From the IMG/VR virus record IMGVR_UViG_3300037589_000222, positions 1 through 34,468 of that record: a stretch of 34,468 nt of DNA. The stretch is one strand, 5' to 3'. Under the pieces are notes generated by a model. It worked only from the letters and a program-made list of their open reading frames with translations. It had not been told where the DNA came from and ran no database searches. This document shows positions 1,539-34,468 of the stretch, piece by piece. The DNA comes from a virus (Duplodnaviria; Caudoviricetes). The position numbers and the translations under genes are program-made. Each line of letters starts with the position of its first letter. Within the stretch, counting starts at the first letter, position 1.

Positions 1539-1623
1539 GGAGAAATGGCAGAGTGGTCGAATGCGGCAGTCTTGAAAACTGTTGACTGTAACAGGTCCGG
1601 GGGTTCGAATCCCTCTTTCTCCG
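1539..1623 (+). tRNA. tRNA-Ser: tRNA-Ser(TGA)
   Basis: GGAGAAA/TTTCTCC acceptor stem, GCAGT-CT-TGA-AA-ACTGT anticodon arm, long variable arm, GGTTCGAATCC T-loop; CCA not encoded. Confidence 0.97.
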
Positions 1624-1625
1624 CT

Positions 1626-26344: not shown

Positions 26345-26731
26345 CTATTGGATAGGCTCAACTTGATGGTTACTAAACAAATTTGCAATCCCGAAGAACT
26401 CGTATTCATCTTTTTTGCCTTCTTCATTCTCTTTTTCAAATTTTCTAGGCTTTGACCAAATAAAGAATGATTTAGAACCTCTTACGACTTTGAATCCTTT
26501 TTCTTTCCAACCTTTGAATGTATTGAATTCTGTATGCTCTTCGTTTTTATACATAGTGTTCAGAATTACTTCGTTTACTGTGCTGTATAGCTCTGCTATT
26601 CCAGGAACTTCTTCAAGCATCTGCTTTGCTGTTTTACTAAATGATTTTAGTAATCTCTTTTTTTCTTCGATTCCGCTAGTTGAGAAAATTAAGTTGTAAA
26701 AGTCTTCTTTCGATTGTATTTCAGTACTCAT
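26345..26731 (-). CDS. ArdC N-terminal-like (DUF1738) ssDNA-binding domain protein
   Basis: FNTFKGWKEKGFKVVRGSK...LFSNHQV motif. Confidence 0.7.
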   Translation of the reverse strand: MSTEIQSKEDFYNLIFSTSGIEEKKRLLKSFSKTAKQMLEEVPGIAELYSTVNEVILNTMYKNEEHTEFNTFKGWKEKGFKVVRGSKSFFIWSKPRKFEKENEEGKKDEYEFFGIANLFSNHQVEPIQ

Positions 26732-27999: not shown

Positions 28000-28193
28000 C
28001 TACAGGTTTAATGCTACTGTTTTTGAGTTTTATAATGAATATTTCTACAATTCCAACAAACTAAATGACCTGTTTTGGTGTCACGGAATCCATTGAATAT
28101 ATGCGGACTGTGTGCCTTTGGTTTTGGCTGCAAATTGCAGTAATTACAGGTTTTTATGTTGGAAAATAGATTGCTCATTTTCTACAGTTTTAA
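28000..28193. repeat. 194-bp exact direct repeat, copy A
   Basis: Identical by eye to 30304-30497, offset 2304. Confidence 0.95.
28014..28178 (-). CDS. 54-aa CxxC...CxxC Zn-finger protein, copy A, not in ORF track
   Basis: MSNLFSNIKTCNYCNLQPKPKAHSPHIFNGFRDTKTGHLVCWNCRNIHYKTQKQ*. Confidence 0.75.
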   Translation of the reverse strand: MSNLFSNIKTCNYCNLQPKPKAHSPHIFNGFRDTKTGHLVCWNCRNIHYKTQKQ

Positions 28194-30303: not shown

Positions 30304-30497
30304 CTACAGGTTTAATGCTACTGTTTTTGAGTTTTATAATGAATATTTCTACAATTCCAACAAACTAAATGACCTGTTTTGGTGTCACGGAATCCATTGA
30401 ATATATGCGGACTGTGTGCCTTTGGTTTTGGCTGCAAATTGCAGTAATTACAGGTTTTTATGTTGGAAAATAGATTGCTCATTTTCTACAGTTTTAA
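30304..30497. repeat. 194-bp exact direct repeat, copy B
   Basis: Identical by eye to 28000-28193. Confidence 0.95.
30318..30482 (-). CDS. 54-aa Zn-finger protein, copy B
   Basis: Same sequence as 28014..28178. Confidence 0.75.
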   Translation of the reverse strand: MSNLFSNIKTCNYCNLQPKPKAHSPHIFNGFRDTKTGHLVCWNCRNIHYKTQKQ

Positions 30498-30890: not shown

Positions 30891-31693
30891 TTTTCTTCTG
30901 TACCAGCATACCTGTTATGAATTTCCTTTTCTACGATTTCATAAACTTGTGCATCATAGTTTTCCGAGTTTTCACCATTGAGTTTTAAATATTCTCTTAG
31001 TTTATCTTCACTCACATTTTGGGCTTCAATACGTACTTTCTCTAAATAATCCGTTCTATTGGTAACGATTCCTTTTTTCTGTAATCGCTTTTTATGTCTT
31101 GAGCCTAAGCCCGATCCGTTTCGATTATGATTTACTTTTTCGTCTCCAATACCTTCAAACATTTTAGAAGCTACTTTAGGATCGATTCCATTCAATGTGA
31201 TTCCTTTGAAATCATCTTTTGCTTTTTGATGTTGGTTTTCTCTTTCCTGAGCTTTTAGTTCTAAGTATGCGGGAATCCATTTGTGAAACACAGTTTGGCT
31301 ATCAAGCCTAAAATCTTTACCGTCTCCGATTTTTCCTTGACGAGCATATTTAAACATCAATGCAACATCTTCAAGAGTTTCATATCCAAAGACCTCGAAT
31401 AAATCTAATGCCATCATTGAAGCTTGAGTTGGCGTGAACTTTTTACCAACATTGAAATTCTCAGATAATCTAAGCGCTAAGTATGCTATGGCTTTGATTA
31501 CGTTCTTTTTTTCAATTTGAGTGGAAAGCTTATTGAGTTGAATTCCATCCATTGCTTTTGATACAGTAAGTTCACTCTCAAAAACAATAAGCTCACTCGT
31601 ATCATTTTTAGCCAAGCAACTCATCAACTGCATGGTTGACTTCTGACTTAATGTCGCTATCTGATTTGGCGTAACTTGTATTCCTGTTTCCAT
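30887..31693 (-). CDS. Replication-associated protein, possible helicase loader
   Basis: Overlaps and follows the initiator gene; function positional. Confidence 0.45.
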   Translation of the reverse strand: METGIQVTPNQIATLSQKSTMQLMSCLAKNDTSELIVFESELTVSKAMDGIQLNKLSTQIEKKNVIKAIAYLALRLSENFNVGKKFTPTQASMMALDLFEVFGYETLEDVALMFKYARQGKIGDGKDFRLDSQTVFHKWIPAYLELKAQERENQHQKAKDDFKGITLNGIDPKVASKMFEGIGDEKVNHNRNGSGLGSRHKKRLQKKGIVTNRTDYLEKVRIEAQNVSEDKLREYLKLNGENSENYDAQVYEIVEKEIHNRYAGTEEK

Positions 31694-32447
31694 TGCTAAT
31701 TATTTCGTCTTTCCAAGACTGGTTGTTTAAAAAAGTTTCAGGGTTCTTTCGGTATTGCTTGTTTGGTTGAGCTTGTTTGTAATTTGGAATGTAAATCATG
31801 ATTGCTTCCTTAGTTTGCTGAGAAAGCTTTTCCCATTTAGCTTTTATCTTTTCTTTTCTTCCAACTTTTTTATCATACTCATTCCAAAAATCATCGAACG
31901 TCGGATATATTTCTACATCTACATTTTCATTTTTAATTACATTTCCATCTTCATTTGCATTTGCATTTGCTTTATTGTTAACCATTTGGTTAACCATTTT
32001 TTTAAACCACTCTCTAACCTTTGATTTTATTAGGTTTTCATCTTTAATTACTTCACCATTTTCTTTGATGAAATCGTCCATGATGAACAATTTTTTTATT
32101 TTTTCTTGCTGCTTTTTATTTAATTTTGATCGAGAAATTAAACCTGCAAAACAAGCTGCGGCGGTTTTTTTTGGTTTGTTCGTTGACCGTTTGGCTATCT
32201 CTTCGGCTAACCTAACGTTTAACCAACCGTCAACCATTTGGTTGAACTTTTGGTTAAGCACGTCCTTAATGGTTTGTTCAGTACAACCTGAACAATACAT
32301 TAATAATCTCCGTGTGTCGTTCGGGATTGTTCCATTTTGGTGCTGGTAGATTAATAAGTCTACGTAGCATGCGCGTTCCTCTGGAAGCATCATGCGAGTA
32401 CCTTCATAGAAGTCTTTAGAATAGAATAAGAATGCTGGATCTTTCAT
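31608..32447 (-). CDS. Replication initiator (DUF1376/YdaU-like N-terminus)
   Basis: PAFLFYSKDF...EERACYVDLL; C-terminal FDDFWNEYDKK...NPETFLN..W.DE. Confidence 0.8.
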   Translation of the reverse strand: MKDPAFLFYSKDFYEGTRMMLPEERACYVDLLIYQHQNGTIPNDTRRLLMYCSGCTEQTIKDVLNQKFNQMVDGWLNVRLAEEIAKRSTNKPKKTAAACFAGLISRSKLNKKQQEKIKKLFIMDDFIKENGEVIKDENLIKSKVREWFKKMVNQMVNNKANANANEDGNVIKNENVDVEIYPTFDDFWNEYDKKVGRKEKIKAKWEKLSQQTKEAIMIYIPNYKQAQPNKQYRKNPETFLNNQSWKDEIISNGNRNTSYAKSDSDIKSEVNHAVDELLG

Positions 32448-32968: not shown

Positions 32969-33715
32969 TTAATTGCTTTGATTCTCGAAATATGTTTTGG
33001 AAAAAGTATGGCTTACAACATCATTGCATGAGATTGTTTTTGCGGAAAGGATTGTGACTTGAAACGTTCCTGTTTGATCGCTATCCTGTCTTAATTTGGT
33101 CAGGAAGTTTATTATGTACACTTTGGCTTTTTCCGCGTCTGTAGCGTTTAAAATGAAGTTCTGAGTTATTAATCCTTCATCTTCATAATTTACTTCAACT
33201 TCTACCTTATAATAATGTTCTTCTTTCTTGGTTTCCTCTGAAGAATTGGAAGAAATTAGGTTACTGTAGTCCAGCTCTCTAATTCCCTTGAACTTGAATA
33301 CTCCTGAATACTTTTGCTCCACAAAGTCTATGGCTATATCTCGTGCAGTTTCAATTGAGTTTGCGTATAAGTAGATATTTTTCTTTTTCGAGTTTAATTC
33401 AAAGGTTACTACCCAAACAGAAGCATGATTTTTAACTAGCTCACATTCTCTTTGCTGGTTGCTTATTTCTACTTCTTTAATATCTCCACTTTGTAGATGG
33501 AAGTTTATTTTTGAAATTGCATCATTATTAAGATGAGTACCTCTTTCAAAGATTAACTCATTTCTTTCGATTGAAACTACATCTCCAGTATCTTCATCTA
33601 CAAAATCTTCATTCCATGTACGGAGTAGCCTTTTAGCTAGATACATGTTTTTCATTTCCGAGATGTCGGAAGTTGTTATGATTCTTTCTTCAAACTTAGT
33701 TTTCATATTTACCAT
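32969..33715 (-). CDS. Phage protein with RpoB-insertion-like N-terminal domain and two DUF4494-like repeats
   Basis: LAKRLLRTWNEDFVDEDTGDVVSIERNELI; C-terminal half has two similar units (LYANSIETA, LNATDAEKA). Confidence 0.75.
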   Translation of the reverse strand: MVNMKTKFEERIITTSDISEMKNMYLAKRLLRTWNEDFVDEDTGDVVSIERNELIFERGTHLNNDAISKINFHLQSGDIKEVEISNQQRECELVKNHASVWVVTFELNSKKKNIYLYANSIETARDIAIDFVEQKYSGVFKFKGIRELDYSNLISSNSSEETKKEEHYYKVEVEVNYEDEGLITQNFILNATDAEKAKVYIINFLTKLRQDSDQTGTFQVTILSAKTISCNDVVSHTFSKTYFENQSN

Positions 33716-33730
33716 TTTTTATGTAGAATA

Positions 33731-34468
33731 TTAGAAAGAAATTAGGTTCTTAAATTTTTGAAAACCGTATGCATTTGTTTTTTCTAGGATCGGGTATAAT
33801 TCTTTTGCGGTGATGCTTTCAACGGTAATGTTGTTTTGCTCACGCCAATTTTTCACACCTAATTCACATGCTCCTGTAATAATTCGGTAGTAGTTATCTG
33901 TGATTACTGTGTCTTCATTTATTGGTTCATTTTGAAGTTTCTCAGCAACTATTTTAAACTGCACGTCACTTATAGCCTTTTTAACGGTACTACCATGAGC
34001 AAAATGACTTTCCTTTTCAGCCACATAACAATCGGTCTTTTGAATATTACCTCTTCTGATTCCATAGAAATTGAATCCTGAGTAAATTTTTATTCCTTTA
34101 GAAGTCTTCTTTGATGTTATAGCAAAGATGTAACCGTCTACTATTTTCACATCGTACTTCTTTCCTTTGATTTCAACCGCAGTCAATTGGTTTCCGTCAA
34201 ACGCCCCTGAGCCAATGTGAGTGACACTGTTAGGGATTTCAACCGCAGTCAATTGGTTTCCGTCAAACGCCCAGTCGCCAATGTGAGTGACACTGTTAGG
34301 GATTTCAACCGCAGTCAATTGGTTTCCGTCAAACGCCCAGTCGCCAATGTGAGTGACACTGTTAGGGATTTCAACCGCAGTCAATTGGTTTCCGTCAAAC
34401 GCCCCTGAGCCAATGTGAGTGACACTGTTAGGGATTTCAACCGCAGTCAATTGGTTTCCGTCAAACGC
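33731..34468 (-). CDS. BspA-type leucine-rich repeat protein, 5'-truncated by window end
   Basis: 22-aa repeats NQLTAVEIPNSVTHIG(DW/SG)AFDG; frame open to the window edge. Confidence 0.88.
   Translation of the reverse strand, partial: AFDGNQLTAVEIPNSVTHIGSGAFDGNQLTAVEIPNSVTHIGDWAFDGNQLTAVEIPNSVTHIGDWAFDGNQLTAVEIPNSVTHIGSGAFDGNQLTAVEIKGKKYDVKIVDGYIFAITSKKTSKGIKIYSGFNFYGIRRGNIQKTDCYVAEKESHFAHGSTVKKAISDVQFKIVAEKLQNEPINEDTVITDNYYRIITGACELGVKNWREQNNITVESITAKELYPILEKTNAYGFQKFKNLISF
34169..34468. repeat. 66-bp tandem repeat, at least 4.5 units
   Basis: Units start at 34169, 34235, 34301, 34367, 34433; two alleles differing only in two codons. Confidence 0.95.

Follow-up and report, generated by a model that had tools for sequence, protein, structure and literature searches.

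The window, the whole 34,468-nucleotide stretch of DNA that was analysed, has a GC content of 34.4%, and its terminase, portal, capsid, tape-measure and holin genes all lie on the minus strand. The window is likely a prophage because its left end consists of host-like DNA and a tRNA-Ser, the latter being, from its position, the likely attachment site. In comparisons aimed at the host genus, the tRNA region alone gave a match. The gene under study is a 248-amino-acid (aa) open reading frame (ORF) near the right end, flanked by a gene for an LRR_5 protein that is cut at the window end; a replication initiator lies three genes on, in agreement with the placement of the ORF in an early/replication module by the first-pass annotation. 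Met4 is the start in many homologues of the ORF, and the closest named homologue is from Tenacibaculum (64%). The features are as follows.

1539..1624, plus strand: tRNA-Ser, left edge of the phage genes (from position)
31608..32447, minus strand: DUF1376/primosomal replication initiator, three genes downstream of the 248-aa ORF (domain and family matches)
32969..33715, minus strand: 248-aa ORF of the phrog_35807 family, an RpoB-derived domain plus two DUF4494-like units (family match, E 5.5e-65)
32972..33220, minus strand: DUF4494-like unit 2 and C-terminal helix, residues 166-248 (AlphaFold model, fold comparison)
33254..33430, minus strand: DUF4494-like unit 1, residues 96-154, beta-beta-alpha-beta, eL20/PurS/Gp2-like fold (fold comparison, Pfam matches in the family)
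33458..33694, minus strand: complete copy of the RpoB beta-i4/SI1 (BBM2/BEAN) insert, Bacteroidia type, residues 8-86 (sequence and fold match)
33557..33616, minus strand: acidic long beta-hairpin, residues 34-53 (90% identity to the host consensus in the window copy, 73% family-wide)
33575..33601, minus strand: hairpin tip VDEDTGDVV, residues 39-47 (helicase-interaction motif but with Asp for Glu at position 45)

Several other elements of the window were recorded. The LRR_5 protein directly upstream of the 248-aa ORF (33731-34468) is of the BspA type and is encoded with near-identical 66-bp repeats. A 194-bp segment occurs twice without a mismatch (28000-28193 and 30304-30497, 2,304 bp apart), each copy bearing the same 54-aa ORF, through either a recent duplication or an assembly artefact. 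An ArdC N-terminal-like anti-restriction protein adjoins a DUF4942 methyltransferase (26345-26731). On the host side of the tRNA-Ser, about four short ORFs on the minus strand (1-1207) are alike in their Lys-rich leaders and Cys-rich ends and are putatively lanthipeptide-precursor-like, and tandem 7-bp repeats at 1265-1348 have similar runs in some genomes of the genus sample. A loose family of 22-nt repeats (1694, 4693, 27552 and 28825; 77-82% identity) may be the "22-bp promoter" of the first-pass annotation; we saw no link between these repeats and the 248-aa ORF, and nothing was found that ties the protein to such a promoter.

The N-terminal domain is homologous to the beta subunit of bacterial RNA polymerase (RNAP). 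When the 248-aa protein was compared with the PDB by phmmer, the two matches at E <= 1 were both Bacteroidota RpoB chains, 9n9p_C (residues 226-291, E 1.6e-11) and 8dkc_C (residues 226-285, E 2.2e-4), and the family profile matched the same chains with E-values of 2.2e-17 and 7.3e-8, respectively. The AlphaFold model (mean pLDDT 90.9, pTM 0.75) had RpoB 9n9q_F as its top Foldseek match (E 1.5e-4), and VIA-align superposed residues 6-91 of this predicted model on residues 217-312 of 9n9q_F with a Z of 7.6 and an rmsd of 3.2 Å over 81 aligned residues (38% identity). Other BEAN-fold matches were MoeA (Z 6.4) and an Orn/Lys/Arg decarboxylase (Z 5.2), and the E. coli RNAP lobe chain of PDB 7EGS aligned to residues 10-86 (Z 5.0). 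The peptide that had been quoted as evidence of RpoB ancestry does lie at residues 26-62 (33530-33640), and the match is significant and covers the whole beta-i4/SI1 insert, beyond the motif alone. It is limited to residues 8-86; Pfam and NCBIfam scans gave no RpoB match, and the catalytic and core RNAP domains are absent from the 248 aa.

The beta-i4/SI1 insert is described as built of BBM2 modules (PMC2939025) and as a type 4 BEAN domain with a TGD/E motif (PMC11515920), and the TGD at residues 43-45 of the phage protein conforms to this motif of RNAP-beta BEAN domains. Structures 9N9P and 9N9Q come from a study of the F. taeanensis RNAP (10.1101/2025.06.10.658880); about the inserts, that study says no more than that they can be seen at lower resolution and probably contact transcription factors. 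In the model, strands 30-39 and 46-56 with a turn between them (pLDDT above 90) place the motif at the tip of a beta-hairpin; the tip is probably exposed, judging by its weak coupling to the C-terminal part. The phage protein thus has the sequence, the fold and the long TGD/E-tipped hairpin of RpoB beta-i4/SI1 (CATH 3.90.105.10; PDB 9N9P/9N9Q, 8DKC); unlike it, the phage copy is free of RNAP, is fused to two DUF4494-like units and retains 23-29% identity in its body.

The capture of beta-i4 is real, old and selected. A word search gave 188 matches among 493 candidates, an exhaustive profile search yielded 761 clusters (50% identity), and family membership was confirmed for 427 of 519 stretches from viral contigs. 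The 259 proteins in hand were reduced by 70% thinning to 198, whose mean pairwise identity is 34%. In a quick domain tree built on 82 columns from 60 of the 198 phage and 40 of the 77 host rows, phage and host sequences fall on either side of a single branch (SH-aLRT 99); this is consistent with a single old capture of the whole family but does not prove it because the tree has no outside root. At residues shared by phage and host, 57% of codons differ synonymously, and the closest of 80 host rpoB stretches is 79% identical at the nucleotide level, so that the near-verbatim peptide reflects selection on the protein. Recent capture or a chimeric assembly is ruled out by this nucleotide identity together with the size of the family. 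At strict E-values no chromosomal host gene was found in 201 family genomes or 81 genus genomes, in a search that had no positive control. A search for shorter forms returned eight matches, which look like either fragments of RpoB or truncated members of the family, and a strict DNA pattern in viral contigs returned 14 loci, the 11 read comprising nine full-length members and two small proteins; the tally of architectures is a lower bound, as these searches covered only shorter forms and the strict pattern. Our literature search, outside of which most subscription papers fell, found no paper on the phage family or on a phage copy of beta-i4, and the word "phage" does not occur in the main text of the BEAN survey (PMC11515920). 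Host-protein mimicry by captured domains is of a known kind; an RNAP surface insert as a phage module is new as far as we found.

The host version that was copied can be narrowed. The insert had been ascribed to Bacteroidota in general; the RpoB assignment stands, and the phylum-wide scope does not, as the family profile matched 95 of 101 genomes of the class (94 of 100 without the unpublished G505) vs. only 37 of 151 phylum-wide. The class matches lie at profile positions 8-69 on RpoB-sized frames of about 1,270 aa. The lobe was fetched for five non-matching genomes of the phylum, and the four readable inserts, two of which are identical, have a short hairpin in two cases and a different long hairpin in the other two, with D-x-x-T-G-E in all. 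The D-x-x-T-G-E tip is ancient, an older constant than the stem, because these sister-lineage inserts keep it while the stem differs. A stem of the form W-x-E-D-F...S-I-E-R-N-E is typical of Bacteroidia, and the phage copy is of the Bacteroidia form. One genome has a second domain match (G380:C32:23153-23338) within a 340-aa frame, either a duplicate fragment or another fusion.

Conservation in the captured domain is concentrated in the hairpin. Relative to the host consensus, the 198 phage proteins showed 73% identity at residues 34-53 and 79% at the tip (40-47) vs. 23% at residues 9-29 and 29% at residues 57-70. The corresponding values for host proteins were 97, 100, 68 and 67%, where the selection of the host set by a first-strand pattern inflates the first-strand columns but not TGE. 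Bias from the word seed is not the explanation, because the 133 sequences obtained by the exhaustive search alone show the same pattern (68, 75, 22 and 28%). Judged from these alignments, a focus of selection on the protruding hairpin fits mimicry, and the captured RNAP surface domain proposed in the first-pass annotation is borne out by homology and fold. Mean-field coupling, weak at an effective 179 sequences, linked the N-terminal arm, the linker, the unit-1 helix and the last helix (coupled pairs F8-Q134, E9-T241, Q134-F238 and G77-A118); the hairpin gave little signal. The four linked elements may form a rigid base that holds the hairpin out.

The hairpin was also detected on another body. 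A tblastn search of 50,697 phage records matched four, three of them F. psychrophilum phages, and in the one F. psychrophilum record that was opened the match was a 100-aa protein. This Flavobacterium phage/prophage protein (L161:4884-5186; L164:3001-3303) matches the family over its residues 55-84 only, which is the hairpin on a non-BEAN scaffold; with a charge of about +10 counted over the first 57 residues, its N-terminal part is strongly basic. Its relatives number 38 matches, most of them 76-100% identical, and three distant ones (P0300-P0302) keep W-x-E-x-F-x-D-E and E-R and have lost TGE. Since an unrelated 100-aa scaffold carries the hairpin alone, the hairpin is the portable unit.

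The acidic character of the hairpin (net charge -6) and the many tip variants tolerated would also suit a domain that serves the protein's own fold or acts as a generic acidic arm, imitating nucleic acid or hooking a phage protein, without any partner of host RNAP being involved. Consistent with such a structural role, the highly fixed R89, F72, G59, D130, E10, F238 and E133 lie outside the hairpin and resemble an internal core. However, 73% identity to the host despite 57% synonymous codon change is more than a generic acidic arm would require, as is near-verbatim recurrence on an unrelated scaffold, and we regard this explanation as improbable.

The two DUF4494-like units described in the first-pass annotation hold at the level of the family, with Pfam DUF4494 matches in 22 of 79 aligned members at E <= 0.01 (best E 4e-6), but not for the window protein itself, which has no Pfam DUF4494 (PF14902) match. 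The best viral fold matches of the C-terminal part were DUF4494 proteins, and an Atlas DUF4494 model aligned to residues 96-242 with a TM of 0.70 over 130 residues, both sides being predicted models; the profile matched one host DUF4494 protein weakly (probability 37%). DUF4494 (PF14902) and the C-terminal part are thus predicted to have a tandem beta-beta-alpha-beta two-unit fold in common, although DUF4494 proteins, unlike the phage protein, are without the RpoB domain. The literature search found no papers on DUF4494 function. Host DUF4494 was also considered as the hairpin's natural partner and discarded, since it was found in one of five host genomes and the hairpin is class-wide. In a Prevotella genome (L162:1480-2686), a host DUF4494 gene lies directly upstream of a 224-aa gene that is presumably YggS/PLP-binding-like. 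The net charges of the two units (+1 and -5) do not suggest plain nucleic-acid binding, and the units may instead serve as a protein-binding handle.

Among solved structures, the units aligned with eL20/LX (Z 6-7.3), PurS (Z 6.0), T7 Gp2 (2wnm, Z 4.8; 2lmc, Z 4.2) and B. subtilis epsilon (6wvk_E, Z 4.2). The last two alignments and the early position of the gene could point to a transcription hijacker, whose C-terminal units would dock on RNAP like T7 Gp2 or epsilon while the beta-i4 copy supplies an extra lobe contact or dislodges an existing one. The Gp2 and epsilon scores are below those for eL20/LX and PurS and within the background range of the tool, and the domain scans gave no sigma or Nus domain. 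Transcription hijacking, which the first-pass annotation had offered, has this weak fold likeness (Z 4.1-4.8) as its one basis, and we think it quite improbable. T7 Gp2 and other phage RNAP modulators resemble the 248-aa protein in being early phage proteins with a weak fold likeness to its C-terminal units; to our knowledge, modulators of this type bind RNAP and are not copies of RNAP domains. Pfam and NCBIfam scans of the protein and the family detected no sigma region 2 or 4 domain, and Atlas clusters of up to 2,739 members carry the label "RNA polymerase subunit sigma" without a sigma domain, a label that the present finding corrects.

In the literature that we read, the only partner connected with this hairpin is the Tudor domain of UvrD/PcrA, which the first-pass annotation did not name; the partners it did propose (sigma factors, Nus factors and defence sensors) received no support. 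In B. subtilis, the PcrA Tudor domain binds the exposed SI1 hairpin with the consensus [VIL]DxxTGE[VIL][VILT], replacement of the motif Glu by Ala or Lys causes a severe loss of pull-down, and UvrB has the same motif, with free UvrB competing with RNAP for PcrA (PMC8318588). According to its title, PDB entry 7EGS combines the lobe of E. coli RNAP with the C-terminal domain of UvrD. The motif carriers reported for PcrA/UvrD (RpoB, UvrB, YxaL and YwhK; PMC8318588) have an exposed D-x-x-T-G-tipped hairpin, as does the phage protein, and the cognate Tudor domain is present in the phage's host phylum; unlike these carriers, which are all host proteins, the window copy is phage-borne and has Asp for the key Glu.

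The host side of this interaction is well represented. The strict motif was present in 75 of 77 distinct host insert segments, and a UvrD Tudor domain was present in 61 of 61 genomes of the host phylum, where it matched 7egs_B with an E of 2e-17. An invariant Lys, which we take to be PcrA K727, occurs in all 30 aligned UvrD Tudor domains. On the phage side, the tip is the part of the family that has stayed closest to the host consensus. From sequence comparison, we estimate a probability of about one half that the 248-aa protein captures host UvrD/PcrA through its hairpin, and UvrD/PcrA is the candidate partner.

The tips of the phage hairpins are more variable. Among 194 of the 198 rows (four were dropped for gaps), position 45 is Glu in 147, Glu or Asp in 162 and Lys or Arg in eight; the strict motif occurs in 37, TGE in 88 and [TSN]G[ED] in 131. 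The window copy, VDEDTGDVV, fails the strict pattern as it has TGD rather than TGE. The eight Lys or Arg tips, which have the change that blocked binding in B. subtilis, count against UvrD as the partner, as do the loss of TGE in P0300-P0302 and the better conservation of the stem (W34, E36, F38, D40 and R51 kept at 90-98% vs. 76-82% for T43, G44 and E45). Host UvrB lacked the helicase-interaction motif in five of five Bacteroidia genomes (L213-L217, about 1501-1800), so recognition of the motif by the Tudor domain may differ in Bacteroidia, and the literature that we read held no report of UvrD binding to beta-i4 in this class. A predicted complex between residues 1-95 and the Tudor domain of a Polaribacter UvrD, run without controls, scored 0.19 and 0.01 vs. 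a mark of 0.32 and weighs neither for nor against binding. A simple motif match would make the case for UvrD, which survives, look stronger than it is, and a UvrD-binding function has probably been lost or changed in some family members.

The same stem conservation could reflect a decoy for another binder of the long hairpin, such as a regulator of the DksA/TraR or Gre type, a factor particular to the class, a defence sensor or a rival phage's effector. The stem face (W34, E36, F38, I49, R51 and E53) is nearly fixed in hosts and is the best-kept part in phages, P0300-P0302 keep the stem without TGE, and in E. coli TraR is reported to contact SI1 and T4 Alc resistance to map beside it. However, the reported Alc mutations fall outside beta-i4, and no such factor was identified in our analysis. 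Furthermore, the R32-I55 and R32-E53 couplings imply cross-strand pairs (W34-E53, E36-R51 and F38-I49), so stiffening of a long hairpin may be the sole reason for the stem's conservation. A decoy of this kind is unlikely, if still worth considering.

Gene neighbourhoods lend weak support to a link with recombination and replication. We examined 81 family loci, with the full ORF in 77, and 32 were left after 80% thinning. A recombination or replication gene was no more than three same-strand ORFs away in 19 of these 32 non-redundant loci, a count that had no control and was made in early regions that are rich in such genes. NinB/Orf genes were one to four genes upstream of the family gene in nine of 32 loci; the window itself ends 750 bp upstream of the ORF. 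Neighbour labels were taken from one representative per cluster, and two of them (an initiator-like and a resolvase-like cluster) were partly inferred. UvrD strips RecA, and Orf helps load RecA. A reverse transcriptase and a gene of 98-105 aa lie within five genes of the family member in three of 32 loci (L082, L086 and L134).

If UvrD/PcrA is the partner, Bacteroidia UvrD would bind the hairpin on host RNAP, and the protruding hairpin of the phage copy would bind the C-terminal Tudor domain of the same UvrD, drawing the helicase off RNAP and toward the phage early recombination and replication machinery. The DUF4494-like pair would provide the rigid base and a second handle. The captured helicase may be used or merely held; we lean to an adaptor role because the hairpin recurs on other bodies. 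Such a protein would keep the anti-recombinase UvrD off phage recombination intermediates, or would borrow UvrD for replication. A broader proposal, which we make tentatively from the two scaffolds, is that Bacteroidia phages took the beta-i4 hairpin more than once, on different bodies, as a hook for UvrD/PcrA or for a class-specific RNAP factor.

Known phage transcription factors bind RNAP, whereas the 248-aa protein is built from a piece of RNAP. With UvrD/PcrA captured, the phage would have one docking site by which to control R-loop clearance, anti-recombination and transcription-coupled repair. Should the partner be another, the protein would be a bait for a nearly invariant RNAP surface of Bacteroidia. 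Repeated acquisition of the hairpin, if true, would define a class of adaptors that phages build out of an RNAP fragment and would offer a ready bait for the partner of the invariant Bacteroidia hairpin.
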